The notes under the pieces: model-generated
The model's input: the letters and a program-made list of their open reading frames with translations, nothing else
What the model was told of the DNA's origin: nothing
Databases searched by the model: none
Source: Clostridiales bacterium
GTDB lineage: Bacteria > Bacillota > Dehalobacteriia > UBA7702
DNA: 64,000 bases
Reading direction: 5' to 3'
Assembly: GCA_040766525.1 (NCBI GenBank)
Contig: JAXGQI010000008.1
Span: 167-64,166 of the forward strand
Shown: one piece after another, positions 2,610 through 57,328 of the stretch
How positions within the stretch are numbered: position 1 is the first letter of the stretch
How the letters are laid out: each line of letters starts with the position of its first letter
Made by a program: the position numbers and the translations under genes

Positions 2610-4206
2610 AAGAAAAAAGAAAATTCCAAAAGTGCAAATCATAAGAAGAGTTATGCAAATCGCCTCCTTTCTTTTGTTGCCTGCACTTTTTGTAAGTACA
2701 TATATTGCTATCAAAAGCGTATATCTTGCCATTATCAACCAAACATTTGCGGTTGAGACCCTCTTGCCGCAGTTGATCTTATTACTTGCCGTTGTTCCCC
2801 TGACGATTTTATTGGGGCGGTTTTTCTGCGGCTTCCTTTGCTCTTTTGGGGCAATGGCCGATTTCTTTTGGTTTTTGGGGCGGAAAATGAAATTGAAGCC
2901 CCTGAAAATCAGTGAAAAACTCGATAAAAGCCTCCGTTTAGTGAAATACGGGATCTTACTTTTTATTCTGATTTTTATTTGGACCTTGGGTTGGGTACAG
3001 ATTGAGAGCACTTCCAATCCCTGGGATATGTTCGGTATGTTTACCTCCTTTTCGGCCTTACCGTCGGCGTCGTATGTGTTAACGATCGGCTTTGGCCTTT
3101 TGTTCTTGATCATCATTGGTTCGTTCTTTGTCGAACGGTTCTTTTGCCGGTATCTATGTCCTTTGGGAGCGGTATTTTCCTTCCTTTCCCGGCCGCGCAT
3201 TTTGAAATTGAAAAAGCCGACGGAAAATTGCGGCTCCTGTAAGGCCTGTACCAAAAGTTGTACGATGGGTTTGCCTCTTTATCGCAGTGATACGGTCAAT
3301 AGCGGTGAATGTATCCAGTGTATGGCTTGTATCAGCGCTTGCCCCCGCGAGAATATCACCGCCCGGATCGGGAAAAGTGATGTTGCCCCGCTGGCAACGG
3401 GTTTAGCTGCGACTGCGATGATGTTGGGCATCTATTATGTCGGCAATATCGCCACCAGTAATGTGCAGGGTGCGGATTACAGTTCGATGGTGGATCAGGC
3501 CCATATTGCGGAAGCCGAAGGGCTGTATACCGATGGCGTTTATGAAGGGACTGCAACAGGATACCGTGGCACTACGACGGTGGCCGTTACGGTGGAAAGC
3601 GGTTTGTTGACGGATGTCGAGGTTATATCGACCGATGATGATATGGAATTCTTTAGCCAGGCGGCAAATACGATCATTCCTGCGATTCTTTGCAGCCAAT
3701 GTGCCGATGTGGATGCGGTTTCCGGCGCGACCTTCAGCAGTAACGGCTTGATCGATGCGATTGCGCTGGCATTAACCGAGGCCGGCGGAGAAGAGATGAC
3801 GACAGAAATGTCGGAACCACAGGCAACTGTTGAAGAGGAAATTATATCTGCCCCCACAGAAGACAGCGTCGCCCTGGAAACCGGGGCATACGAAGACGGC
3901 ACCTATACCGGGACCGGCACGGGATATGAAAATGGGGAAACGACCCTCCGTGTTTTAGTGGAAGACGGACGCATCAGCGCTATCGACATTATCTCTTATG
4001 AAGACGATGATCCCTATTTCCGTACCGCCTTTGATGGTGTGACCAGTGCGATCATCGAAACTCAGGCCGTTGAAGTGGATGCGGTTTCCGGGGCGACTTT
4101 CAGCAGTAATGGGATCATGGAAGCGGTAGCCGACGCCTTGGATCTCGATTTCACCAATTCCAACAGTGAGCTGCAATCGGAAAAGCGGGGAAAAGGGCAT
4201 AAATAA
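2602..4206 (+). CDS. NapH/NosR-like polyferredoxin membrane protein with two C-terminal FMN-binding domains
   Basis: TM helices, GRFFCGFLC and RFFCRYLCPLG, two CxxCxxCxxxC motifs, and two VDAVSGATFSSNG flavinylation motifs. Confidence 0.9.
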   Translation: MGKRKKKIPKVQIIRRVMQIASFLLLPALFVSTYIAIKSVYLAIINQTFAVETLLPQLILLLAVVPLTILLGRFFCGFLCSFGAMADFFWFLGRKMKLKPLKISEKLDKSLRLVKYGILLFILIFIWTLGWVQIESTSNPWDMFGMFTSFSALPSASYVLTIGFGLLFLIIIGSFFVERFFCRYLCPLGAVFSFLSRPRILKLKKPTENCGSCKACTKSCTMGLPLYRSDTVNSGECIQCMACISACPRENITARIGKSDVAPLATGLAATAMMLGIYYVGNIATSNVQGADYSSMVDQAHIAEAEGLYTDGVYEGTATGYRGTTTVAVTVESGLLTDVEVISTDDDMEFFSQAANTIIPAILCSQCADVDAVSGATFSSNGLIDAIALALTEAGGEEMTTEMSEPQATVEEEIISAPTEDSVALETGAYEDGTYTGTGTGYENGETTLRVLVEDGRISAIDIISYEDDDPYFRTAFDGVTSAIIETQAVEVDAVSGATFSSNGIMEAVADALDLDFTNSNSELQSEKRGKGHK

Positions 4207-18375: not shown

Positions 18376-18837
18376 CTAGGGGATGATAATGAATGTTGGA
18401 TTCCTCGATTTTTGCTTGGCTTCTTCGTGTTCGGTTACGATTTCGATATAGCCCTCATCGCCGTTTACGATTACTAGATCGCCGGTTTTGATGCGTGCGA
18501 AAATATCCTCTTCAATATCGGTGACGACGGGTACCCCGGTGACGACTGCGGCGACGCCGGTACGGGAATCGATTTTGGGGAAGACCATGCCTGCCGGGGC
18601 CATGCCCCTTAATTTGGCTGCATGAAAGTGGCAAGACCAGCCGTTGGAGCCCTTGCCTCCTGAAATGATCAAGATCGAATCCTTGAGGCATTTTCCTTCA
18701 AAAGGATGGCCGATTTCCATGATAATCCCGGTCGCTTCATCCACTCCGGACCAGCCTTGGATCGTTTCTCTGCTGACCATTGCAACTCCTTTGGCAATTC
18801 CCGGGACCGCTCCCCGGCCATAAATTCTTTGTGCCAT
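18376..18837 (-). CDS. Aconitase X small (swiveling, DUF126) subunit
   Basis: G.A.VS, GHPFEG, GKGSNG and IKTGDLVIVNGDEG; overlaps the large-subunit stop codon. Confidence 0.85.
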   Translation of the reverse strand: MAQRIYGRGAVPGIAKGVAMVSRETIQGWSGVDEATGIIMEIGHPFEGKCLKDSILIISGGKGSNGWSCHFHAAKLRGMAPAGMVFPKIDSRTGVAAVVTGVPVVTDIEEDIFARIKTGDLVIVNGDEGYIEIVTEHEEAKQKSRNPTFIIIP

Positions 18838-20111
18838 TATTCCACCTCCCAAACACCGCTGATTGCGCTTGCGATACATTTTTCCAAAGAGCCGTAATAG
18901 ACCTTCACCTTGCCTTCGGGGGTAATATAATGGGCTTGCTTGGCGGAGTCAAAGGCGGCGGTTTTGCTGTTGGGCGGCATTTTTCCACTGGTTAAGGGGC
19001 AACTGCTGGTCAACAGGATTGCGCCGGCTTCCGCGATGGTTTTGGCATAGCCGCAGCGAACCGCAGTTTCTTTGATGGGGTTGGCCGTCCAGATATGGAG
19101 GACCGTATTTTCGGCGATGTGTTTCCCTTCCAGCAGTTTTGCAATGATTCGCAATTCTTCGATACTGTAATGGGGGCAGCCTAAGCTGATATAGTCGATT
19201 TTTGCGCTTTTATTGTTGCCATTTAGAATTTGCAAGGATTCTTTTAGGTCGTCTTCCGTAATGTCCATGGTAAAGACGGGATCTTTCCCGCCCAGAGCCG
19301 CTTCCAATGTCGGTGCTTCCGGCGTAATGCCGACGAGATGGCACATTTCCGGGCCTGCCGTCGTTGCCATGGCGGCAAAAAAGTATTTGATGGAAAAGAT
19401 ATTGGGGCGGTCTTCCAAGCCGTCGAGTACGGGGATGCTGTGGGTGGGCAGATACCGCCCGATGGTATACCCCAATAAATCCCAATCATAACTGTTTTTT
19501 AAAGAGCATTTGATATTGAAAACATGGGTGCCTTTTCTGTTCTCCATGATATGATTCCCCCATTTGGGAATCCTGCCGCAAGCGGCGGCCCAAAAGCCCG
19601 CTTCCAATCCGTCCGCATTGCCCGAAGCGCTCCAAAGCGAATTCATCAAAGTTACCGCATGGGATTCGCTGGAAACATAATGTTCGCCTTTTAAGGGAAT
19701 GAAGCCGCACATATAGGGGACGCAGGTGCCGACGAGATTGACGCCCTGTTCCCGGTAATATTGTAAGAAGGCCTGATTCTTTTGGCCTTCTGCTTCCGTT
19801 ACATACATTTTGGGGTAATGTTCGGGATCCATCGGTCCCGTGTCCGATTGGCAATAGCAGGCAAAAGGTTCCTGGGGCATGATGGTATCGCTGCAATACT
19901 GCATTTGGGAGATCGTTTCGGGAATACGGTCGCTCCCTGCGGCGTTGAGGTAGCCATGAGCGCCGCAAAAAAGATGGGCCATCGTGACTTCAGCCAGTTC
20001 TTCGGCCCCGAGAACATGGGCGTATTCGACGATCTTGGTGAGGGCCTGCTGCTTTAAGAGGCCATGGGTTCCCGCCAGCATCTCTTTTTCATATTCGGTT
20101 AGTTTAAGCAA
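18837..20111 (-). CDS. Aconitase X catalytic (DUF521) subunit
   Basis: LTEYEKEMLAG, TCVPY, ESHAV..NS, HLVGITPEA, LGCPHYS and DSAKQAHY. Confidence 0.88.
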   Translation of the reverse strand: MLKLTEYEKEMLAGTHGLLKQQALTKIVEYAHVLGAEELAEVTMAHLFCGAHGYLNAAGSDRIPETISQMQYCSDTIMPQEPFACYCQSDTGPMDPEHYPKMYVTEAEGQKNQAFLQYYREQGVNLVGTCVPYMCGFIPLKGEHYVSSESHAVTLMNSLWSASGNADGLEAGFWAAACGRIPKWGNHIMENRKGTHVFNIKCSLKNSYDWDLLGYTIGRYLPTHSIPVLDGLEDRPNIFSIKYFFAAMATTAGPEMCHLVGITPEAPTLEAALGGKDPVFTMDITEDDLKESLQILNGNNKSAKIDYISLGCPHYSIEELRIIAKLLEGKHIAENTVLHIWTANPIKETAVRCGYAKTIAEAGAILLTSSCPLTSGKMPPNSKTAAFDSAKQAHYITPEGKVKVYYGSLEKCIASAISGVWEVE

Positions 20112-20112
20112 A

Positions 20113-20697
20113 TCAATCTTCTCCTTTAAGTGCATCCGCATCAAAATCATAATAGGTAGAAAAGCAATAGTGGATGCTATCGGTTTTGCCGCTGTTTTTA
20201 TACGAATGGGGCGTATTCGCCTCGATACAAAAGGTGTCCCCCTCCTCTAAAAAATAGGTTTGATTGCCGATCGTTAATTCCAGGGTTCCTTGGAGGATCA
20301 CCCCGATTTCATCATTGCTGTGGGAATGGGGTTCCCGATCCGCCGTACCCCCGGAAACGCCTTCCGGTTCGATCGTAATGCAATACCCTTTCAATTTGGA
20401 GTCTTTGGGGCTGATCGCCTCATATTTTGCTTTCGACGGTTCAAAGTAAAATACCGTTTCCCGATCGCGTTTGCGCAAAATATGTTCTTTTGTACTGAAA
20501 GGCTCTAAAAATGCGGACATGTCAACGCCGAGGACTTTGCAAAGATCAAATAATGTGCTGATCGTCGGGCTGGTTAAATCCCGTTCAATATTGCTTAGAT
20601 AGCCGATGGACAAACCGCTCCTTTCAGAGAGTTGTTTCAGCGTCAGCGCTTTTGCTTTTCTGATTGTGCGTAGTTGTGGACCGATTGATGCCAGCAT
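20113..20697 (-). CDS. XRE-family HTH regulator with a cupin domain
   Basis: LKQLSERSGLSIGYLSNIER HTH; HSH..E..G.L cupin motif. Confidence 0.9.
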   Translation of the reverse strand: MLASIGPQLRTIRKAKALTLKQLSERSGLSIGYLSNIERDLTSPTISTLFDLCKVLGVDMSAFLEPFSTKEHILRKRDRETVFYFEPSKAKYEAISPKDSKLKGYCITIEPEGVSGGTADREPHSHSNDEIGVILQGTLELTIGNQTYFLEEGDTFCIEANTPHSYKNSGKTDSIHYCFSTYYDFDADALKGED

Positions 20698-21976: not shown

Positions 21977-22092
21977 TCCCGTAATATGTAATTGATGCGG
22001 CGGCAAAATTTCATGAAAGCGCGTTAAAAAAACGCCCTTTGGCAGTTCGTTGGGAAGTGCGAAGTGACCCCAAAAAGTTAGGCAATAATTGA

Positions 22093-22834
22093 TCAAGCAG
22101 CCGAGAGGGCTTGTTGTCTGTGAATAGCAGGCGGCAAGCCCTTTAAATATACTTTATTGCGGCGGTTGTTATAATAATCAAGGTATTCGATCAACTCCTG
22201 TTTGAAGTGCTCCATTGATTCGAATTTCTGCAAATACATCAGTTCGCTCTTGAGTAGCTCAAAGAAGTTTTCAATCACGGCATTATCCAGGCGATTCCCT
22301 TTGCGGCTCATGCTCTGACGAATGCCCTTGGCCTTTAAAATTTCCCGATAGTGTCTATGCTGGTACTGCCAGCCTTGGTCAGAGTGGAGAATCAAGTTTG
22401 TTCCATCCGGTATTTGCTCGAATGTTGTTTTCAACATAGATGTTACCATAAAAAGCATTGGCCTTTCCGATAGGGTATAGCTTGCGATGTCCTGGCTGCA
22501 AAGATTAAGAATCGGTGATAAATACAGTTTTTGGCCAAACAAGCTGAACTCCGTAACATCTGTAATCCACTTCAGGTTTGGCTTCTCAGCCTTGAAGTCT
22601 CTTTTTAGAAGGTCGGGGGCAGTTTTACCCACTTCGCCCTTGTAGGATTTGTACTTTTTCATTCGTACCCGGCAGACAAGGCCAAGCGCTTTCATCAATC
22701 GCTGAACCGCCTTGTGATTAAGAGGGAATTCCCGGTTGCGGAGCTCCGATGTAATACGACGATGCCCGTAGCGTCCTTTGTTTTCGTGATATATGGCTGC
22801 AATTTCGTCTCTTTCTGTGCTGTACTTATCTGGC
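22093..22834 (-). pseudogene. IS3-family transposase OrfB, 5'-truncated
   Basis: The frame reads DKYS..IAAIYHENKGRYGHRRIT..NHKAVQRLMK, then the DDE motifs WITDVTEF, HSDQGWQY and IENFF. Confidence 0.9.
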
Positions 22835-22913
22835 TATCTTTGCCGTTTTCGGCCATGATTTTATCAATAACTTCATCGGCAAGTTCCAACGACTTTAAAA
22901 ATTCTCTTTTCAT
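22835..22913 (-). pseudogene. Phage capsid scaffolding protein (GP20-like), N-terminal stub
   Basis: MKREFLKSLELADEVIDKIMAENGKD with a GGAGG RBS, cut off by IS orfB sequence. Confidence 0.75.
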
Positions 22914-23048
22914 TTTCTATCCTCCAATTACGCTTTTTTCGGGGTTGCATCCCGTATTGTCCGTAGTTTTACGACATCGGGCGGTCAATTTTGGGCATAT
23001 AAAAAGCACTCTGCGTTTGCAAAGTGCTTTGAAAGCTGTTATTTGGTT

Positions 23049-23330
23049 TTAGCCTTGATGGAGCAACCCTTCCAGTTCATCCAGTTCGCGGCTATCCTCG
23101 CAATAAATAAATGGACCGTCCTCTATATCGTAAACTACGGTAAACGGGGTTTCTCCATGTTTCCCCTCATAGTGATCGGCATATGGCAACACAATAGGTT
23201 TGCCTATGCTAATTTCAGGGACATCGTATAAAACATTTAGCGCACGTGTCAGAAGTGTTCTCTCATCTACACGATCCCTGTTTTTAAAATAAAAACGAAC
23301 GGTATCGCCTTCCATTCTAAATGTATCCAC
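23049..23330 (-). CDS. Small acidic protein, candidate immunity protein for the MuF toxin
   Basis: 93 aa with a strong RBS (AAGGAGG) just after the muF stop; lies between muF and scaffold, as in MuF toxin loci. Confidence 0.6.
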   Translation of the reverse strand: MDTFRMEGDTVRFYFKNRDRVDERTLLTRALNVLYDVPEISIGKPIVLPYADHYEGKHGETPFTVVYDIEDGPFIYCEDSRELDELEGLLHQG

Positions 23331-23348
23331 TCATACATACCTCCTTAC

Positions 23349-24269
23349 TCAAAAGCCAAGGTCTCTGTCGATTTCCTTATTTGACGTCGACGCTGACCTA
23401 ATTATGTCCACGTACAAGTCATCTCCGTCTAAATGATATTTTCGCCTTTTATGCTCCAAAATTTCCTCAAAAGAGGGATTGGGATGCTTTTTATCAAGAT
23501 CCTTCACCTTGTCCCTATCCTTCATCATGTTTCTTGCCTGTGTACGGTACTTGTTTCTTAGGCTAAAAGCCTTTTCAGCTTGCTCCTTCAATGCCTCGGC
23601 TTTATCCAGCAACTGGGGTATTTGTGCAATATGCCCCCTATACCAGCTTCTCACCTCAACTTTTCCAAATAAGCTATCAAGTCTCTCAGAATAATCCAAG
23701 CTATTCAATACGGACTGTTTCTGCCGGACAAACTCGGTCCATACTTCACTCCTATTATACTTCAAATCCTGGAAATCTGCAAACGATTTAGGGAAATCTT
23801 TGCCTTTAAAAATGGCCTTATATTTAGCAAATTGCTCTTTATCAGCCGCCCAATTCTTGGCAGTTTTCTGATTAAAAGCCATCTTGCTTTTCTCATCAGG
23901 AGAAAGACCGGCTTTCCATTCGCTATAGCTTATATCCGCCGGTATGGTGTAGCTTGATCCTTCTGCTGCCCTGGCGGCTCTCTCACCGCCAAGATCAGCG
24001 AAGTATGGGATTGTCGTGCATCGGCAGAAGGGATGCAGCGGGGGATAATTAACACCCGGCTTTTCATCTTTTACGGGATAATGCTTGCCATCCAAACCAC
24101 CGCAATGCTCACATGTGCGGCTGTCAAGGGTGCCGAGAAATTCATACTCTTCAACCTCTGCTTCTTCGTACATGTCTTTAGTCGCTTGATTCAAAATGAA
24201 ATTTGTTTCGGTGCGAATGAGCCGTTGAGCTCGATACAATTCACCGCCTTTCTTCCCCTCTACGACCAT
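23349..24269 (-). CDS. Phage Mu gpF/SPP1 gp7-like (MuF) protein, N-truncated, with a toxin-like C-terminal extension
   Basis: RLIRTETN, LDSRTCEHC and PPLHPFCRC MuF motifs; a linker, then a ~100-aa helical C-terminal domain (RSWY..AFSLRNKYRTQAR..PNPSFEE..DIIRSAS). Confidence 0.82.
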   Translation of the reverse strand: MVVEGKKGGELYRAQRLIRTETNFILNQATKDMYEEAEVEEYEFLGTLDSRTCEHCGGLDGKHYPVKDEKPGVNYPPLHPFCRCTTIPYFADLGGERAARAAEGSSYTIPADISYSEWKAGLSPDEKSKMAFNQKTAKNWAADKEQFAKYKAIFKGKDFPKSFADFQDLKYNRSEVWTEFVRQKQSVLNSLDYSERLDSLFGKVEVRSWYRGHIAQIPQLLDKAEALKEQAEKAFSLRNKYRTQARNMMKDRDKVKDLDKKHPNPSFEEILEHKRRKYHLDGDDLYVDIIRSASTSNKEIDRDLGF

Positions 24270-24542
24270 CTGTTTGAATTTACCCGTATTCTTTTTGTTA
24301 GGTATTTCCTTTGTGCAAAAATCACCCCAATCGTTATTCAGTAGATCATATGGTCAAACTTTTGGGGGTCATTTCATAATGCCATGGGGTGTTTTTATTT
24401 TGTTTTAAAAGTTAAAGTCGCAGCTAAATGCAGCTATTTTCGGTGCTGCACCGTTCGACAGGATTTCCTCCTTTCTAGGAAAGTGTTCTATGGCAATGGC
24501 GAAAGCGGATATGCTAAACTGAAAGAAAAAAGGGGAGGAAAA

Positions 24543-25367
24543 GTGAAGGGATACAAATGGCTTTTTGCCTGTTTTTTTCTTTTATGCCTGCTTTTTTTGA
24601 GCGTTTTCTATCCGCACAGGGAAGAAACCGTATTTCTTGGTTCTGCTGCTTTACGGCCCGGTTATGCGACTTTGTCTGAAGAGGAGCAAGTCCTTTACGA
24701 TCAAGTGCGCGCGGTGATTGAGGCTTTGGCTGTCAATGTCAGCTTGGGGGAAGGCGTCAAAAGCGATACTTTCCATAAAGTAGTGGAATATATCCAACTG
24801 GATTATCCGGAGATTTTCTGGCTTTCTCCCCAATATGAAGTGGTGACAAGTGAGGATGGTGAGCTAATGTATGAAGCTCATTTTTCCTATACCTTTACGA
24901 AAGAGGAAATCAGCGCCAGAAGATGGGAATTGGAACAATGCCTGCAAAAAATAGTGCGGCAAACGGGGACAGGCGTTGATGGGCTCCGTTTTCTCCACGA
25001 TCATCTCATTGATCATGTGCAGTATGATTCTGATGGCGCCGACACATACAGCACCCTGGTTTTGGGCAAGGGGAATTGCCAAGGATATGCCAAAGCTTTC
25101 CAGTTATTGGCCAATCGGGAAGGTTATGCTTGTATCACGGTCATGGGGGAGGCCGGCGGGGTGAAACACAGTTGGAATTTAGTCAAGGTCAATGGGGAGG
25201 TTCTTTATGTCGATGCAACCTGGGATGATCCACTGCTCAGAGGGGATACGGTGCTTTCGGAGCAAGACCGTTACCGTTATTTTTTGATTGGGGAAGAAAC
25301 TTTGTTTCTCGATCATTCTTTGCCACAGGCCACGCCCTATCAATATCCGATTTCGATCTATCAATAA
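24543..25367 (+). CDS. Secreted/membrane transglutaminase-like protein
   Basis: N-terminal TM; Cys-His-Asp triad motifs GNCQGYAKAF, HSWNLV and DATWDD. Confidence 0.85.
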   Translation: MKGYKWLFACFFLLCLLFLSVFYPHREETVFLGSAALRPGYATLSEEEQVLYDQVRAVIEALAVNVSLGEGVKSDTFHKVVEYIQLDYPEIFWLSPQYEVVTSEDGELMYEAHFSYTFTKEEISARRWELEQCLQKIVRQTGTGVDGLRFLHDHLIDHVQYDSDGADTYSTLVLGKGNCQGYAKAFQLLANREGYACITVMGEAGGVKHSWNLVKVNGEVLYVDATWDDPLLRGDTVLSEQDRYRYFLIGEETLFLDHSLPQATPYQYPISIYQ

Positions 25368-31427: not shown

Positions 31428-32958
31428 ATGCAAAAGAGTATTTTGCGGGCGACTACGGTCGTCCTGGTGATGAATTTATTGGCGAAGATCCTTGGCTTCG
31501 GCCGGGAAATGGTAATTGCCAGGGTTTTTGGCGCCAATATGTATACGGACGCCTATTTAGTTGCTTATACTTTACCATATTTTTTGCAGACGATCCTTGG
31601 TTTCGCTTTGGTCACGGTTACCGTGCCACTGTTGACGAAATATCTGTTGGATGATAATAAAACAGAAGCCTTCCAAGTCAGCAATTATTTTATCAATATC
31701 GTAATTATTGTAATGACGGGATTTGCGCTGTTGGGCGTTGTTTTGGCGCCCTATTTGGTGAAGATCACCGCGCCGCTTTTCAATGCGGAAACGGCGGCTT
31801 TGGCTACGGAATTGACGCGGATCATGTTCCCCGCAGTCATTTTTATGAGCTTGGGCATGGTGATCACGGGTATTTTAAATGCCCATCACCGGTTTTTAGC
31901 GGCGGCGTTTGCTCCCGGCTTTTCCAGTTTGATCATCATTCTGGGGGTCCTTGTCCTCGGCTCTTCCCAAGGGATTTACGGCCTTGCTGTGGCAACCCTT
32001 GTTAGCTTTGTCGGTTTGATGGTCGTGCAATTACCGAGCCTGTTCCATTTGGGGTATCGTTATGAAGCGAAGATCTCTTTGAGCCATCCCGATGTGAAAA
32101 TGGCGATGAGTACGATCTTGCCGATCGTTTTGGGGACTGCAGTCAATCAGATCTATTTTGCCTTAAACCGCATTTTTGCTTCCGGTTTGGTGGAGGGGAG
32201 TATCTCTGCCTTGAATTATGCCAATAAACTGGGTGAATTTTTCCCGGTGGCGTTCTCTGTATGGCGATTGCCGCGGCAGTTTATCCGTCTTTTACTGAAT
32301 TTGCCCTTAAAGGAGAGCACAGGAAAACTCATGGGCAGTTTGGAAAAGGGGATGGGAATGGTCATGCTCTTAGGATACCGGCGGCAGTCGGCTTGATCGT
32401 ATTGAGGATTCCCATTGTGCAACTGCTTTTTGAGGGGGCGCTTTTACCCTATGAGAATACTTTGCAGACGGCTTCCGCTTTACTCTATTTTTTCCAGTTG
32501 TTCCCTCTTCGCAGCGGTAATTGTTTTAACCAGGGTATTTTATGCTTTTTGGTGATGTAAAGATGCCGGTTTACGCCGGGCTCGTAGGGATTGGATTAAT
32601 GTTGCTTCCAGTTTGCTTTTGCGGGGGCCTTTAGCCCACAGCGGTTTAGCTCAGCTAATTTTTAGCGGCTACCGCCATGTTAATTTTCTATGGTATTGAA
32701 AAAATATCTGCCGGATTTGGCATATCGACCGTTTATTGATTCCTTTTACGCATTACAGCTGCGTTTCTGGTGATGGGGGCGGCGATCCATTTCTCCTTCC
32801 TGCTTTGGGCGGTTTTCGGCAATGACGGCGGTAAGGGGACGATGCTCGTTGTTTTGGGGTTGCGGTGGAATTCTCCTATGTTGCATCGGCATTTTTGTTG
32901 CGGATCAAAGAGGCGAATTATGTGAAAAAGAGATTATTTAAAGCTTCATAAAAAATAA
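31428..32958 (+). CDS. murJ: MurJ/MviN lipid II or polysaccharide flippase (frameshifted)
   Basis: LAKILGFGREMVIA..FGA..DAY, ISALNYANKL and many TMs; end coordinate approximate. Confidence 0.85.
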
Positions 32959-48850: not shown

Positions 48851-51262
48851 ATGAATGTATCATATCAATGGTTAAAATCCCTGGTTCCTTTCGATCTGGG
48901 GCCGGAAGAATTGGCAGATAAGCTGACTTTCGCCGGGCTCAGTGTGGAACAGGTTGTATATTTGAATCAAGGCGTTAAGAATGTTGTCGTCGGGAAAGTG
49001 CTCCAAGTGGAAAAGCATCCCGATAAAAAGAAATTATCCATTTGCAAAGTGGACAGCGGCAAGGAAGAATTGACCGTCGTCTGCGGTGCTCCCAATGTGC
49101 GGCCCGGCATCAAGGTTCCTTTGGCTTTGGTCGGTGCGGTGCTCCCCGGCGGAATCGAGATCGGCATTGCCGATAAGGGGGGTATTACTTCTTACGGCAT
49201 GCTCTGTTCGGAAACGGAATTATCTTTGCCTCAGGGGCTGGCTTTAGCGGATTCCGAAGGTGGGATCTTCATCCTGCCGGAAGATTTTACCGTTGGCGAA
49301 GATATCGTTACGGCTTTAAAGCTGGACGATGCTATTTTAGAATTTGAATTGACGCCCAACCGGGCCGACTGCTTATCCGTGGTCAATATCGCCCGTGAGG
49401 TGGCGGCGATCACCGGCGCGCCCTTGACTTTGCCGGAGATCATACTCCCTCCGGCGGTGAAGGATATTCGCTCAATGATGTCTGTCGAAGTAGAGGACGA
49501 TTTCCTCTGCCCCCGTTTCACCGGGAAGATCATCGAAGGCGTGAAGATCGGGCCTTCTCCTTATTGGATGCGGCAGCGTTTGGCATGTGCGGGAATCCGC
49601 TCCATCAATAATGTGGTGGATATTTCCAATTATGTCCTTATGGAAATGAGCCAACCTTCCCATACCTTTGATTATCACCGTTTGGCCGGGCATAAGATCA
49701 TCGTCCGCAGAGCGGAAGAAGGAGAAAAACTCGTTACCCTAGATGAAATCGAGCGGACGCTGAATCATGATATGCTCTTGATCTGTGACGGCGAGCGGGC
49801 GGTTTCCGTTGCCGGGGTCATGGGCGGTATGGATACGGAAATCACCGGAAACCGAAACGATTTTCATTGAATGCGCCTATTTTTATCCCAAGTCGATCCG
49901 GTTGACTTCCCGTGCTTTGGGCCTTTCTTCCGAGTCTTCCGCCCGTTTTGAAAAAGGGATCGATAAAGAAAATGTTGCGCGCTTCGGACCGCATCGCCCA
50001 GTTGATGTGCGATTTGGCCGGAGAGTACTCTGGTTGAAGGGACTTTGGATACCTTCAGCGGCACATTTGAAAAAGGCAAGTGGAAGTTACTTTAGAACGG
50101 ATCAACGGCACCTTAGGCATCGAATTGACCTGGCAAGAGGTGGAGGCCGTCATGTCCGCTCTCGCTTTTGCATATGATAGAGAAGGAGACAAGATCATCA
50201 TTTCCGTGCCCTCTTACCGTCCGGATATCACAAGAGACGTCGATATTATCGAAGAGATCGCAAGGCTCCACGGCTATGATAAGATTCCCGCTACCCTGCC
50301 GAAGGGGAAGGTGACCGAGGGTCGCCGTACCGAAAAACAAAAATCGAGGACAAAATCAAAGAGCGGATGGTTGCTTTGGGATTTTCCGAGATCATTACCT
50401 ATAGTTTTACCAATAAAAAATATTTTGAAGATCTGCTCTTGACCGAAGATGATTTTCGCCGCCGTACGATCCAGGTGAAAAATCCCTTCAGTGATGAGCA
50501 AGGGATCATGCGCACGACTTTATTGCCCAGCTTACTGACGGTGGCGGCCAGAAATATGAACCGCCGCAATCTCGATATGGCCATCTTTGAAATGGCCCAT
50601 GTCTTTTGCCCGGTGAAGAGAAATTGCCTGATGAGGAGCCGCATTTGGCCGCCCTCGTTTCCGGCGCGCATTTAACCGGCTGGAGCAAAGAGAAGGAAGC
50701 CTTCGATTTCTTCTATCTCAAAGGGATTTTAGAGGCGATCTTGGCGCTTTTGCAGATCAAGGATTGGTCTTTATCCAACGAAGATTTGCCGCCTTTCCTT
50801 CATCCCGGAAGGGCTGCAAAGCTCTATATCGGCGGTGAATATCTCGGTTATTTGGGTGAGATCCATCCCACGGTGGCGGAGAATTTCGATCTGCCGGAAA
50901 AAGCCAATGTGATGGAGATCGATTTGAGCGTATTATTGGCTGAAGGGGCAGGACATATCGTTTATCAATCTGTCTCCAAATATCCCGGTGTTGAGATCGA
51001 TTTGGCATTTCTTGCCAATGAGGAAGATCCTGCCGGTGAGATCGCCGCAGCTATCAAGAGAAATGGCGGCGAGATTTTGCAGCAAGTGGAATTGTTCGAT
51101 ATTTACCAAGGGAACCAGATCGAAGCCGGGCAAAAGAGTTTGGCTTATAAACTGAAGTTCCAGGCGCCGGAAAGAACGTTAACCGCCGAAGAGATCAATG
51201 GAAAGGTAGAGATGATCCGTCAGGGTCTAAAAGAGGAATATGGAATCCTTTTGCGTTCATAA
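48851..51262 (+). CDS. pheT: Phenylalanine--tRNA ligase beta subunit (frameshifted)
   Basis: [30 protein letters not shown] and an FDX-ACB C-terminus, across frames. Confidence 0.95.
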
Positions 51263-52520: not shown

Positions 52521-54978
52521 TTGACGAAAAGTGAATTGCTTCTTCCCGCAGGGAATGAAGAATCTTTAATGGCGGCTATCGCCAATGGAGCCGATGCGGT
52601 ATATTTTGCCGGATCGGCCTTTGGCGCAAGAGCCGGTGCGGAAAATTTTGACCGAGAGCAAATGGCGAAAGCCTTGGATCTTTGCCGTCTTTATCGGGTG
52701 AAAGCGTATATCACGATGAATACCCTGGTGAGTGATGGCGAGATGAATGATGCTCTTGAAGATGCGAAATTTCTCTATGACCAAGGAGCGGACGCCTTGA
52801 TCGTACAAGATTTTGGTTTTGCCATGGCGGTGCGGGCCCTTTTACCGGATCTCCCCCTCCACGGCAGTACCCAGATGACGGTGCATCATGTGGCCGGGGC
52901 ACGCTTTTGTTATGAAGCCGGTTTTAAACGCGTTATTTTGGCAAGAGAGATGACTTTGGCGGAAATTGCGGCGATCAGAACGGCGGTTCCCGCATTGGAG
53001 TTGGAAGTTTTTGTCCATGGGGCGCTTTGCATCTCCTATTCCGGCCAATGTTTGATGAGCAGTTTGATCGGCGGGCGGAGCGGCAACCGGGGCAAATGCG
53101 CCCAGCCTTGCCGTATGGCCTATGATTTATATGAGAAAAATGAAGGGCAGTTAACGGAAAAACCGTTGCATCTTTTGAGTCCCAGAGATTTGAATACCCT
53201 TGAATTTATGCCGGAGATCATGATCTCGGCATCGCTTCTTTGAAGATTGAAGGGCGGATGCGGCGGCCGGAATATGTGGCTACCGTGGGACGGGTTTACC
53301 GTAAGGCCATTGACCATTATTACGGCCATAACGAAGCCCCGGATGCAGATCTGGCCGATGTTACCCAGGTTTTCAACCGTGATTTTACCGGCGGTTATTT
53401 TGGGGAATCCCGGCGTTTCTTTGATGAGCCATTTGCGCCCCAATAATCGCGGCGTCTTTTTAGGCCGGGTCAAAGGGGTGCGCGGCCGTTATGTCGCCAT
53501 CCTGGAGAAGGATCTTCACCGCGGCGATGGCATTGAGATCTGGGTGAAAGTGGGTGGTCGTTTGGGGACCACCGTTGCCGATATTCGTTTGGACGGGAAA
53601 AAGGCGGAGTCCGCCAGGGCCGGTCAAACGGTGGAGATTGAAATCGAGGGCCGCATCAGCGATGGCGACCGTGTTTTTAAAACCTATGACGCCGCTCTGA
53701 TGGGCGCCGCCCAAGAGAGCTATCAACAGATGGGGACGGATATGCCCCTTCACTTTTTCGTCAAGGCGGCTTTGGGGGAAAATCTTTATCTGGAAGTCAA
53801 GGATGAAAGAGGGCATGAGGCTTCCTATGAAGCGCCGTATCGGGTGGAAAAGGCCGTGAAAACGCCTACCGGTTATGACGGGGTGGAAAAGCAGTTGGTT
53901 CGGCTCGGCGGCAGCGGATTTTTCCTCTCTTCTTTGGAAGTGGATTTGGAAGAAGGGATTTTGATCCCCGCCAGCAGCTTGAATCAAGCCCGGCGGGGTG
54001 GTGGCGGATATTGCCGCCCAAACCGCGCGGTCTATCCGCGGATCAGGAAGAAAATCGAGTTCTCCCGGCAGCGGGAAGCTCTTGTGGCTGCGGTAAGCTA
54101 TGAAATTTAACGGACTGCCGAAAATCAGCGTGAAGGTGCGTAACCTTGCCCAGGTCATCGCGCTTTGGAGGCGAAGGCGAAACCGAATTTATTTTGCCCC
54201 GTCTTTGGGGGGAAAACCCTTATCTCCTGAAGAGTGGGAGACTTTTGCCGCTTTAGGCAAAAGTTCCGGCGTGATCGCCTATGCTTTGCCGAGGACCTAT
54301 CCGGAAAGCAATGCCCCCCATGTTCGTGAGCAGCTGGAAAAAGCGGCGGCTTCTTGCCGGAATTTCTTGGTGGGACAAGCCGGGGATAGTTTGCTGGTAA
54401 AGGATGTTTTAGCCGATGCCGAGATTATTGGTGATTATTCCCTCAATGTATTTAACCGCCGGAGTTTTTCTGCTTTGAAGGAGAAAGGCTTTGCCGGCTT
54501 AACCTATTCTTTGGAAATGAATAAGGCGGCCTTGGCGTATCAATCCGGAGCGGGAGAAGTCGTCGTCCACGGGTTTTTGCCGGTGATGGTGAGCCGTCAT
54601 TGTTTGATTGGCGCTGTTTTGGGCAAGGAACCGGAAAAAGTGCCCTGCGGCTATTCCTGCCGCGGGAAAGAGTTTTATTTGTCCGATCGGCTTTCCGCCC
54701 ATTTCCCGGTTTACGGGGATCTCTATCACCAGATGCACATTTACAATGGGCGGGAACTGGCGTTGATTACCGAAGCGGAATTTTTGCGGAAGTTCGCCTC
54801 CTGGCGGATCGAAGGGCAGTTTTATGAAAGCCGGGAACTAAAACAGATTATCAGCCTCTATCGTGAGGCGAGACAAGGGAATTTTGGCCAAGATGCTTTG
54901 GCTTCGCTTTTAAACCGGTTGCGGGCAGAGGCGAAAAATCCCTATACTAAAGGACATTTTTATCGGGGAGCACTGTAA
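52521..54978 (+). CDS. Peptidase U32 family protein with DUF3656 (RlhA-like RNA hydroxylase), frameshifted
   Basis: ELLLPAG, GADAVY, EVFVHGALCISYSGQC..RGKCAQPCR, KIEGRM and TKGHFYRG. Confidence 0.88.
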
Positions 54979-54979
54979 A

Positions 54980-57328
54980 ATGAATGACCGAACTTTAGAA
55001 AAATTAGAATATCCCAAAATCATGGCGATGCTGGCGGATCAATGTACCTCGACATTGGGTCGGCAGCTCGTAGGGAAGCTTAGGCCCAGCCGGGAAATAG
55101 AAAAAGTGGAACATTGGCAGGAAGCGACGACGGAAGCGAAAACGATCATCCGCTTAAACCCTTTGTTTCATCTCGGCGGTATTTTCAATATTCGAGAAGA
55201 TATTGAAATGGCGGAAAAAAGCGGCGTTCTGGAAGGGAGCAAGCTCTTAGAGATCATGACGACCTGCCAGGCGGCCAGACGCATCAAACTTTCCCTCACC
55301 CAGATGAAGGAGACCTATCCTATCGTGCAAGAGATCGGGAATGAGATCTGTTTCATCAATTCTCTGGAGAGCGCCATCGAAGGCGCTGTGGGTGACGACG
55401 GGCAGTTGGTGGATAATGCCAGCGGGGAATTGGCCGATCTGCGCCGTAAGATCCGGATTACTTCCGATCGGATCAAAGATAAGATGGAAGGGATCATCAA
55501 GAATCCCAATCAGAATAAGTATCTCCAAGACCCGATCATTACGATTCGCAATGATCGCTATGTCGTCCCGGTGAAACAGGAATACCGGAATCAAGTGCCG
55601 GGTTTGATCCATGACCAGAGCGCCAGCGGTGCGACCTTGTTTATCGAGCCGATGGCAGTTTTGGAGATGAACAATGATTTGAAACGCTTAAAAGCGGCGG
55701 AAGAGGAGGAAATCCGCCGTATCCTCCGGCATCTTTCCAACTTGGTGGCGACAAATAGCCGGGAATTAAAGATCAATCTCGATGCTTTGGCCCAGCTGGA
55801 TTTTATCTTTGCCAAAGGGCGCTTGAGTACCCTTTGGGACGGGTATGCCCCGCTTGAACAAGGAGGGCCGCCTTCCATTTGAAAAAAGCCCGCCATCCTT
55901 TTGGGGGCAAAGGCCGTCCCGATTGATTTGCTGATGGAGGAAAATTTATCGGCAGTCGTCATTACCGGACCCAATACCGGGGCAAAACAGTCAGTTTGAA
56001 GATCGCGGGGCTTTTGTCTTGATCGCCCAGTCCGGCCTGCATTTGCCCGTGGCGGATGGGAGCGAGCTCCCGGTGTTCGCGGCGTGTTGCCGATATCGGG
56101 GATGAGCAGAGCATCGAGCAGTCTTTGAGTACGTTTTCTTCATATGGTCAATATCGTGGAGATTTTAGCCAAAGTAGGGAAAAATAATCTCGTGCTCTTG
56201 GATGAGCTGGGAGCCGGTACCGATCCGGTGGAGGGCGCGGCTTTAGCCATGGCGATCATCGATACCCTGTTGCAGAAGGAAGCGAAAATGATCGTTACCA
56301 CCCATTGTGAGTTAAAGGCCTATGCCTTCAATCATCCCAAACTGGCCAATGCCAGCGTGGAATTTGATATTGATACCCTTCGGCCCACCTATCGTTTGCT
56401 GATGGGAATCCCCGGTCGCAGCAATGCCTTTGACATTGCCTTGAGCTTGGGTGTAGGTGAAAATGTGGTGGCAAAAGCCGACCAGTATATGTCGAAAGAG
56501 GCCAAAGAGGTGCAAAACTTCCTCGCTAATTTGGAGACGAACCGGGCGGCGGCGGAACAGGCCAAAGATGAAGCGGAATCTTTGAAGATCCGCATGGAAA
56601 ATTTGGAACGGGAAGTAAGCCAAAGAGAAAAAGCCTTGGCTTTGCGGGAAGCGCAAATTATGGATAAAGCCAGGGAGCGGGCGGAAAACTTGGTTCGGGA
56701 GAAAAAGCGGGAGGCCGATGCTCTTTTAGCGGAATTGAAAAACCTCTGGCCAAAGAGGACGCTAGAAAACAAGAAGAGACCATGCGGGCAGCCCGGGAAA
56801 AACCAAGCGCATCGGAGATATGGCGCCGGAATGGGAAGAAGCGGATTTCGGCGGCGAAGAAGTCAGGGTTTTAGCGCCGGGGATGAAGTGTATCTTCCGC
56901 GTTTGAAAAAGAACGGAATCGTCTTAGAAGTTTTGAATGAACAGGAAGTCCAAGTCCAAGCTGGTATCATGAAAATCAAAATGAAAGTGAAAGAACTTCG
57001 CAAGCCCCAAGTCTCGAAAAGCAAGCCAATAAAAGCCGCCACGGTCATCTGGCGGCCAGCAAAACAAAGAGGCCAAGAGCGAATTGGATCTCCGTGGACT
57101 TACCGGAGAAGAGGCGCGGATGGAACTGAAAAATTTCTGGACGACGCATTTTTAGCGAATTTGCCCAGCGTGCGCATCATTCATGGCCTGGGAACCGGGG
57201 TTTTGAAAAAAATGGTTTACGATACTTTGAAAACCCATGCCCATGTGGAAAGCCAAAGATTGGGTGGGTATTATGAGGGCGGCGCAGGTGTTTCCATAGC
57301 GCAGATCATAAGGGAAAACAGCGAATAG
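54980..57328 (+). CDS. mutS2: MutS2 endonuclease with Smr domain (frameshifted)
   Basis: IHDQSASGATLFIEP, ITGPNTGG, LDELGAGTDP and IIHGLGTG. Confidence 0.93.

Follow-up and report, generated by a model that had tools for sequence, protein, structure and literature searches.

We analysed a 64,000-nt stretch of DNA (the window) from a Clostridiales bacterium of the lineage Dehalobacteriia (assembly GCA_040766525.1, contig JAXGQI010000008.1, positions 167 to 64,166), which corresponds to contig C51 of our source genome (G000:C51:167-64166), with an offset of 166 between genome and window coordinates. On the minus strand, from 22060 to 24376, lies an element of 2,317 bp in which the two ends of an insertion sequence (IS) of the IS3 family enclose a piece of a siphophage head module. 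This phage insert of 1.42 kb comprises the 306 3' codons of a muF gene, an open reading frame (ORF) of 93 codons, a terminator and the opening 26 codons of a scaffold gene. The IS has lost ~380 bp of its interior, comprising the bulk of orfA, the frameshift region and the first part of orfB. The source genome is a metagenome-assembled genome (MAG) of 52 contigs and 1.58 Mb with a completeness of 67%. The features of the element are listed below in its own direction of reading, with lengths of proteins in amino acids (aa).

24351-24376, minus strand: left inverted repeat (IRL) of an IS3-family element, aligning with the left ends of the intact ~1.28-kb relatives L003, L004 and L005.
24257-24319, minus strand: remnant of orfA of ~21 codons with the canonical ATG lost, recognised by comparison with intact relatives.
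24256-24260, minus strand: left joint, at which IS orfA passes into the middle of muF with a GAGG(G) microhomology, placed by alignment to IS and phage relatives.
23349-24269, minus strand: 5'-truncated muF ORF of 306 codons with an ATG from orfA sequence, recognised by profiles, relatives and a structural model.
24009-24236, minus strand: part of the MuF domain, aa 12-87 (PF04233, Phage_Mu_F, positions 34-112 of 112, 63.9 bits; TIGR01641, 92 bits).
23352-23687, minus strand: putative toxin C-terminal domain, aa ~195-306, shared with MuF proteins of 526-545 aa and with 25 IMG/VR loci.
23049-23330, minus strand: immunity-like ORF of 93 aa with a GTG start 9 nt after AAGGAGG, characterised by family search, model and co-occurrence.
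22998-23030, minus strand: terminator-like hairpin and U-run after the small ORF (-17.7 kcal/mol, z -4.36).
22835-22913, minus strand: first 26 codons of a scaffold gene, identical to the scaffold start of metagenome contig L022.
22834-22835, minus strand: right joint, from scaffold codon 26 into orfB, with a microhomology of at most 1-2 nt, placed by alignment.
22093-22834, minus strand: remnant of orfB (HTH_21, rve and rve_2 by profile matches), with the DDE region unbroken, no start and no fusion to OrfA.
22060-22085, minus strand: right inverted repeat (IRR; CGAAGTGACCCCAAAAAGTT...), with the terminal TG changed to CG, found by reading the sequence and by inverted-repeat search.

The outermost 20 nt of the IRL (24376-24357, TGAAATGACCCCCAAAAGTT) and of the IRR (22060-22079, CGAAGTGACCCCAAAAAGTT) are alike at 17 of 20 positions. 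When the 1.58-Mb genome was searched with this 20-mer, allowing up to three mismatches, only two sites were found, both of them ends of the element, and the reversed-pattern control gave 0. Terminal inverted repeats of the IS3 family end in 5'-TG...CA-3', and insertion of an IS3-family element gives a target-site duplication of 3-4 bp. Here the IRL begins with TG and the IRR with CG, which departs from the TG...CA feature of an intact IS3, and a target duplication of 3 or 4 bp is not present, with TTA/ATTA on one flank and CAC/CACT on the other. Both irregularities had been raised as caveats in the original prediction, which was made from the sequence alone, and both were borne out. An alternative IS end at 22058 (ending in CA) was rejected as it needs a 2-nt insertion in the IRR, and the in-register end at 22060 was preferred. 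Exactly at the tip of the IRR (window 22046-22066, minus strand) there is a 7-nt near-tandem repeat, CACTTCG/CACTTCC, which might be a trace of damage to this end.

The orfA remnant reads ..KEIPNKKNTGKFKQMVVE, and the start of the intact relatives is MPKG.PNK[KR]YTAEFKQ. The bases at the lost ATG were found with 0 differences in a Logan contig of run X1 (24173-24326). The orfB remnant (775 nt) matches NF033516 with 268.6 bits over profile positions 132-366 of 369, its rve core with the DDE residues matches PF00665 with 69.8 bits, and its frame is unbroken from PDKY to the stop. OrfAB cannot be made: orfA breaks off near codon 21, nothing is left of the frameshift region, and upstream the orfB frame is closed by a TAG that lies at the right joint. 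The programmed -1 frameshift that yields OrfAB in intact IS3 elements is thus absent. Intact ~1.28-kb relatives with orfA and orfB were found in three genomes (G004, G013 and G040), with 72-74% nucleotide identity to the right part of the element and 79-80% to its left 76-123 nt. In a pattern search of genome contigs, 586 of 600 matches encode OrfB relatives, mostly from Oscillospiraceae-like Clostridia, and the best OrfB among the 80 loci kept is that of Clostridium leptum DSM 753 (L027). In comparison with these members of the family (NF033516), the element has the same type of inverted repeat, the same orfA N terminus (PNK.YT.EFKQ) and an OrfB with HTH_21 and the rve DDE core. It differs in the missing interior and orfA ATG, in the mutated IRR tip, and in its distance to the nearest relative: a near-identical parent IS was not found in genomes and genome contigs, the best being 79% identical in amino acids and ~74% in nucleotides.

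The phage part starts in the middle of a gene. Since the PF04233 match of the muF remnant starts at profile position 34, homology begins inside the MuF domain, and what follows is the C-terminal two thirds of this domain, then a linker that is conserved and, last, an all-helical C-terminal domain of unassigned family. Residues 12-260 match the minor head protein family PHROG 115. Neither a complete PF04233 domain nor the full N-terminal MuF region is present, and relatives have 526-545 aa as compared to 306 here. The only start codon is the ATG donated by orfA, which has no good Shine-Dalgarno sequence. As the N-terminal ~230 residues are missing, the truncated MuF cannot be a virion-delivered toxin as it stands. 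At the other end of the insert, the 26 scaffold codons encode the identical start of a 186-aa scaffold protein (PF06810, 160 bits) encoded on metagenome contig L022; the fragment alone reaches 28.2 bits, less than the Pfam cut-off of 35.

Two relatives show the type of phage from which the insert derives. A prophage (L002) in the same-genus genome G001 carries a portal gene, a muF gene of 530 aa, an ORF of 95 aa, a scaffold and a capsid gene in this order. Its muF is 78% identical in nucleotides over the whole remnant and has the same C-terminal domain. Contig L022 encodes an SPP1-type portal, a 616-aa MuF, a scaffold and a capsid protein. It is 84% identical to the element over the MuF-domain part (345 alignment columns) and 95.4% identical in nucleotides over the intergenic region and scaffold start (219 columns), and its muF differs from the remnant at the C terminus. 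Record 4 of the X1 contigs (window 22901-23052) differs at 3 positions in the intergenic region and scaffold start. At 23052, the final coding base ahead of the 93-aa ORF's stop codon, all similarity ends, which indicates that the community contains a related phage whose cassette at this boundary is a different one. No phage-family match with E <= 1e-5 was found in the 66 other window ORFs of at least 90 aa, and in the whole source genome the studied remnant is the only MuF match.

The anatomy proposed in the original prediction therefore stood. It had described an IS3 interior replaced by ~1.4 kb of phage head-module DNA, in the order truncated muF, small ORF and scaffold start within the IS ends; an IRL, ~20 orfA codons, an orfB with DDE motifs and an IRR, all placed correctly to within a few bases; a small ORF after muF, found here as 93 aa at 23049-23330; the first 26 codons of a scaffold gene; no other phage genes in the window; and, as general knowledge, the phage gene order portal-muF-immunity-scaffold, seen as portal-muF-(small ORF)-scaffold-capsid in L002 and L022. 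It had also asked for the parent IS and the donor prophage, and the search gave the parent type (72-74% in nucleotides) and the donor type (L002 and L022) and no near-identical parent IS.

The abrupt switches had been predicted at ~24257 and ~22834, and our alignments put them at 24260-24256 and 22835/22834. Both positions were set with IS relatives of 72-74% identity, because no closer parent IS was found. At the left joint, similarity to the IS relatives extends up to element position 120 and that to the phage relatives L022 and L002 starts at 117. In total five short contigs of the public run X1 agree with the element region with 0 differences. One of them, record 7 (154 nt, 24173-24326), spans the left joint, reaching 84 nt to one side and 69 nt to the other. 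The left joint cannot be an artefact of a k-mer graph, even if X1 is the source sample, since the two parents share only ~4 nt there, and we conclude that it is real. At the right joint, phage identity reaches ...GGCAAAGATA (window 22835), and IS similarity starts from the next base (AGCCAGATAAGTAC). AAAACGGCA, 6 nt upstream of this joint, is shared in register by the IS relative L003, the in-register overlap is at most 9, and the joint itself creates the TAG in the orfB frame. To judge by these short overlaps, both joints look illegitimate and of end-joining type, and not like transposase products.

The right joint was not crossed by any contig of runs X1, X4, X5 and X6, in which 22434-22878 is uncovered except for one short, unlike piece. 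Confirmation of the junctions, as proposed with the original prediction, was obtained from contigs for the left joint, and the right one rests on the one assembly. In two further runs, from two other studies, the same chromosomal flank and left IS end were found (X4 record 12, 24258-24550, 1 difference; X6 record 21, 24272-24516, 4 differences). These contigs break off either at the left joint or 14 nt short of it. The phage part was not seen in either run; the contigs may come from an allele without the insert or merely reflect low cover. This bears on a technical explanation, in which the MAG contig would misjoin a chromosomal IS copy and the phage DNA of another organism. Misjoins classically involve IS copies and phages, the MAG has 52 contigs, 67% completeness and many split genes, the right joint has no independent cover, and the X4 and X6 contigs stop at or near the left joint. 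Such a chimera is nevertheless very improbable in our view: record 7 crosses the left joint without differences and with at least 69 nt on each side, ~4 shared nt are too few for a k-mer misjoin, the overlap at the right joint is likewise 1-2 nt and at most 9 in register, and a chimera would have had to pass into the phage DNA and out of it again within a single IS, with the orientation kept.

The muF remnant's C-terminal domain was found to belong to a variable part of MuF proteins. The whole C terminus is common to four database proteins of 526-545 aa (P0001, P0003, P0004 and P0157; 42-50% identity). The MuF protein of L022 (P0002) shows 87% identity as far as about residue 129, with no relation beyond it, and other relatives bear ADP-ribosyltransferase or Ntox50 domains at that position. 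As far as the alignments tell, this pattern of breakpoints is that of polymorphic toxins. In all, the domain is known from 25 IMG/VR loci and 5 database proteins. The C-terminal 152 residues gave a confident all-helical model with a predicted local distance difference test (pLDDT) score of 88.5. The domain had no match to Pfam, to NCBIfam toxin families or to a PHROG with assigned function, and no match in the atlas. No fold match was found either (Foldseek, best E 1.7; VIA, best Z 5.5 at a root-mean-square deviation of 3.8 A over 93 aligned residues), the VIA matches being generic helical bundles.

The small ORF starts 19 nt past the muF stop and is shorter than 150 aa, as expected of a candidate immunity gene next to a MuF toxin gene. 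It is followed by the terminator-like hairpin, which was missed by a simple terminator scan; 0 of 200 shuffled sequences folded as well. An exhaustive HMMER search found a family of ~90-aa alpha/beta proteins with 35 members at E <= 1e-3, almost all of them 86-108 aa long, and the model of the 93-aa protein has a pLDDT of 96.3. No Pfam family was common to more than 1 of 34 family members, and the best Foldseek match (KA1-type alpha/beta domains, E 0.03) was not significant. Leads from the atlas were all below 0.9, including DUF3630 at 0.86. The class of the source genome is small, and among the 73 species genomes compared the immunity-like family is present in 2, the source genome and G001.

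Whether the two belong together was assessed in IMG/VR, where 80 loci were kept from the alignment search with the C-terminal domain, 25 of them with the full domain and 55 with the linker only, which served as controls. A member of the small-ORF family lies directly 3' of the C-terminal domain in 14 of the 25 loci, as compared to 0 of the 55 linker-only loci. The other 11 loci have a frame of 82-101 aa at the same place, 10 of a second type and 1 borderline. In a FastTree phylogeny of 27 C-terminal domains, which includes several near-duplicate loci and was read with support values left aside, a clade of 10 corresponds to the second type and a clade of 17 to the first, with the borderline case within the latter. 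The second frame family (82-101 aa from stop to stop) has the motif Y.ICN..D..F..QC.ALE...DVD.S and is found at ~2910-3230 in each of 10 IMG/VR loci (L128, L132, L133, L135, L137-L139 and L141-L143); it is probably an alternative immunity type.

A complex of the C-terminal domain and the 93-aa protein was modelled with a score of 0.80 (runs 0.79-0.81), as compared to 0.00 for the best control. Between runs, at least 81% of contacts are the same, and the pLDDT of the partner is at least 92. Of 80 solved complexes, 58 attained the mark set for this score, as did 2 of 110 mismatched pairs; these counts hold only roughly, as our own alignments were used. The predicted interface covers the conserved residues R53, W55, Y56, R84 and R92 (numbering of the 152-aa piece). 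The original prediction had read the locus as a toxin-immunity module. With the polymorphic C terminus, the pairing in IMG/VR and the modelled complex, this reading is well supported, and we infer that the muF tail and the small ORF are a polymorphic toxin/immunity pair.

The pair might instead be a structural or assembly module, with a C-terminal extension of MuF and a small chaperone or head-decoration partner, carried passively. We regard this as unlikely. It would fit the C-terminal domain having no toxin family, catalytic motif or fold match, binding as predicted would suit a chaperone equally well, and Jamet et al. 2017 (PMC5576092) do not settle whether extensions at the C terminus that carry no known domain are toxins. 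It fits less well with a C terminus that is swapped between otherwise near-identical MuF proteins, with a partner gene that co-varies with the clade of the domain, and with a predicted interface on the conserved face of the domain. Small downstream ORFs are moreover typical of MuF toxins, being reported for 89.4% of 191 MuF toxin genes as compared to 25.5% of 952 short MuF genes (PMC5576092).

The element was found to be single-copy in its own genome. Of 21 IS3-type matches in the 67%-complete genome, the best is 36% identical in amino acids to the studied orfB, so that a cognate transposase was not found among them, and neither was an OrfA of the lineage of the element. IS copies are often left unassembled. 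No match spanning a joint was found in 40 other genomes or in 13 other genomes of the order. Metagenome contigs from JGI gave 5 relatives, in none of which this C-terminal domain was present at high identity, and both joint patterns had 0 matches in IMG/VR. The search for other copies with the same junctions, which the original prediction had called for, was thus run in relatives, JGI metagenome contigs and IMG/VR, and none were found. Two other IS3-type transposase genes of the source genome (G000:C35:707-1528 and G000:C50:23903-24724) have identical scores (294.9 bits) and open frames of 306 aa; they are 36% identical in amino acids to the studied orfB and point to a different, possibly active IS3 element.

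These results bear on the idea, put forward in the original prediction, that the element is an IS-packaged cassette that could act as an addiction module. In this explanation it would be a working cargo-carrying IS derivative, moved between replicons by OrfAB that an intact copy of its IS supplies in trans, and would spread immunity or act as an addiction module. Such a derivative would account for both inverted repeats being present and specific, with the cargo wholly between them, and for the cassette ORFs and orfB having stayed open in an assembly where many genes are broken. Digester and sludge runs are rich in related IS ends, and the truncated muF takes its ATG in frame from orfA, behind a promoter-like site in the IRL (24372-24345), in a scan that did no better than shuffles (5 sites found, 4.6 expected). 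We nevertheless find a mobile cassette quite improbable: a target duplication is lacking, the IRR begins with CG in place of TG, the element occurs once in all collections searched, the genome (67% complete) yielded neither a cognate OrfA nor a cognate OrfB, OrfAB cannot be made from the element itself, and the joints look like microhomology joints and not transposase products. Of the features of an active IS, only the inverted repeats and the DDE core are there, and this part of the original prediction is not supported.

Two classes of IS with cargo are of relevance here. In passenger-carrying IS (tIS), the passenger genes are accompanied by an intact transposase, and in mobile insertion cassettes (MIC), IS ends surround cargo with no transposase; both are recognised by repeated copies with target duplications. 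The studied element resembles them in that inverted repeats of an IS family bracket genes that do not function in transposition, namely the truncated muF, the 93-aa ORF and the scaffold start. It is not a member of the tIS class, in which an intact cognate transposase lies inside the element. It differs from both classes in being one copy, in having no duplication and in having received its cargo through internal joints that appear illegitimate. Besides the inverted repeats, the DDE core and the passenger genes, no other feature of a tIS is found. In the literature on passenger genes, the text of PMC7371123 concerns Tn3-family transposons.

Taken together, we consider it fairly probable that the locus is a real, single-copy, non-autonomous and probably immobile orphan module of a MuF C-terminal domain and its immunity gene, a relic in a dead IS3 shell. 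Some 380 bp of the interior of an IS3 element of ~1.28 kb would have been exchanged for 1.42 kb of a siphophage head module at two illegitimate junctions. The phage piece would be the variable cassette of a MuF polymorphic-toxin locus, made up of the end of muF, a cognate immunity-like gene of ~90 aa with its own ribosome-binding site and terminator, and the start of the scaffold gene. The truncated toxin would not be packable into virions. The immunity gene, if expressed, would be the only part likely to matter to the cell, where it could neutralise a matching toxin from related phages.

Two routes may have led to this orphan module. One resident IS could have been broken and repaired with a phage fragment; alternatively, two IS copies could have bracketed a prophage, with two deletions leaving the outer IS ends and this piece. 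The second route, or later recombination between IS copies, is favoured by the missing target duplication, and the first by the tidily intergenic position of the element between two intact genes of the same strand. A comparison with an empty site failed to decide between one and two IS copies, because the relatives are too distant. The same-genus genomes are 68-78% identical in nucleotides with broken synteny, and in G001 the flanking 327-aa gene lies inverted at a contig end and the flanking 225-aa gene is found only as a 36%-identical copy on another contig.

Several points weigh against a dead relic with a toxin/immunity pair. Half of the structure rests on one assembly with many split genes, since the right joint has no contig cover in the four runs. 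The orfB remnant is not visibly decayed: it has ~243 stop-free codons and deviates at 9 of 114 highly conserved columns, as compared to a median of 2, a 95th percentile of 12 and a maximum of 14 in intact copies (67 of 80 loci with stop-free segments of at least 235 aa; 13 were dropped). As orfB is only mildly deviant, the insertion event may be fairly recent, or some use of orfB may have been retained. Both inverted repeats survive, and with related IS ends in runs X4, X5 and X6 and a genome that is 67% complete, mobilisation in trans is conceivable. The C-terminal domain is without a match in the family, fold and atlas searches described above, and the status of such extensions as toxins is left open in the text of Jamet et al. 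(PMC5576092). Finally, the 95-aa homologue of the small ORF in G001 is 32% identical, which makes cross-protection against the toxin of the G001 phage uncertain.

There is also a slim chance that the relic is not inert. The immunity gene would then protect members of the genus against a matching MuF toxin, for example from a prophage of the G001 type, the cassette could be a chromosomal reservoir for phages, and it could in addition be mobilised in trans in the manner of a MIC. A reservoir for swaps of toxin and immunity genes by homologous recombination is conceivable because the cassette is bracketed by stretches still similar to live phages (in L022, 84% over 345 columns and 95% over 219 columns), and MIC-like mobilisation in trans because it sits between two IS3 inverted repeats.

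Many housekeeping genes are split or cut in the window (48851-51259, 52521-54975, 31428-32393 and 56144-57325). The pheT gene is spread over at least 3 ORFs and a U32 peptidase gene over 3 ORFs, murJ breaks off at profile position 244 of 451, and mutS2 begins inside domain V. This suggests either an indel-prone assembly or a decaying genome, and the remark in the original prediction that the assembly is error-prone fits, unless gene decay is the cause. Elsewhere in the window, the region of aconitase X (AcnX; 18440-20113) has a 71%-identical second copy at G000:C23:62723-64396.

Orphan modules of a C-terminal toxin domain and its immunity gene, derived from polymorphic toxin loci, were reportedly described by Poole et al. 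in 2011. Such modules of contact-dependent growth inhibition (CDI) as well as Rhs systems, and orphan immunity islands of type VI secretion systems (T6SS), are treated for example in PMC10470768 and PMC12247911. By analogy, the studied element appears comparable to them. It has a 5'-truncated toxin gene with a conserved stretch and a variable C terminus followed by an intact immunity gene, and it lies away from delivery machinery and next to transposase debris. It differs in the toxin family, which is phage MuF and not CdiA, Rhs or a T6SS effector, and in its place, which is the shell of one IS and not downstream of a full-length locus; the protection it may give is putative.

With the MuF polymorphic toxins described by Jamet et al. 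2017 (PMC5576092), the element shares the PF04233 domain, the variable C-terminal extension and the small downstream ORF, and its relatives lie between portal and scaffold genes. It differs in having only the 3' 306 of ~530 codons and in lying outside a prophage, the setting seen for the relatives L002 and L022. Its C-terminal domain is also of no toxin family known to Pfam, NCBIfam or PHROG. According to the same survey, MuF toxins are found exclusively in temperate phages and prophages, and the words orphan, transposase, truncated and insertion sequence have 0 occurrences in the text of PMC5576092. In that of PMC10083569, which also deals with MuF toxins, orphan occurs only in the title of a reference, and no orphan MuF module is described there.

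As a single and probably dead copy in an incomplete MAG, the element has limited wider significance. It offers a concrete case of phage DNA that appears to have replaced the interior of an IS by end-joining at microhomology. If MIC-like mobilisation were true, it would be the first example of immunity to a phage MuF toxin on an IS-derived vehicle. As a by-product, the analysis provides a new candidate pair, an all-helical MuF C-terminal domain of ~110 aa and an alpha/beta partner family of ~90 aa, with a confidently predicted interface. If the structure holds, MuF toxin cassettes would not be confined to phages and prophages, contrary to the first survey (PMC5576092), and could persist as chromosomal orphan modules of a C-terminal domain and its immunity gene, like the cassettes of CDI, Rhs and T6SS systems.

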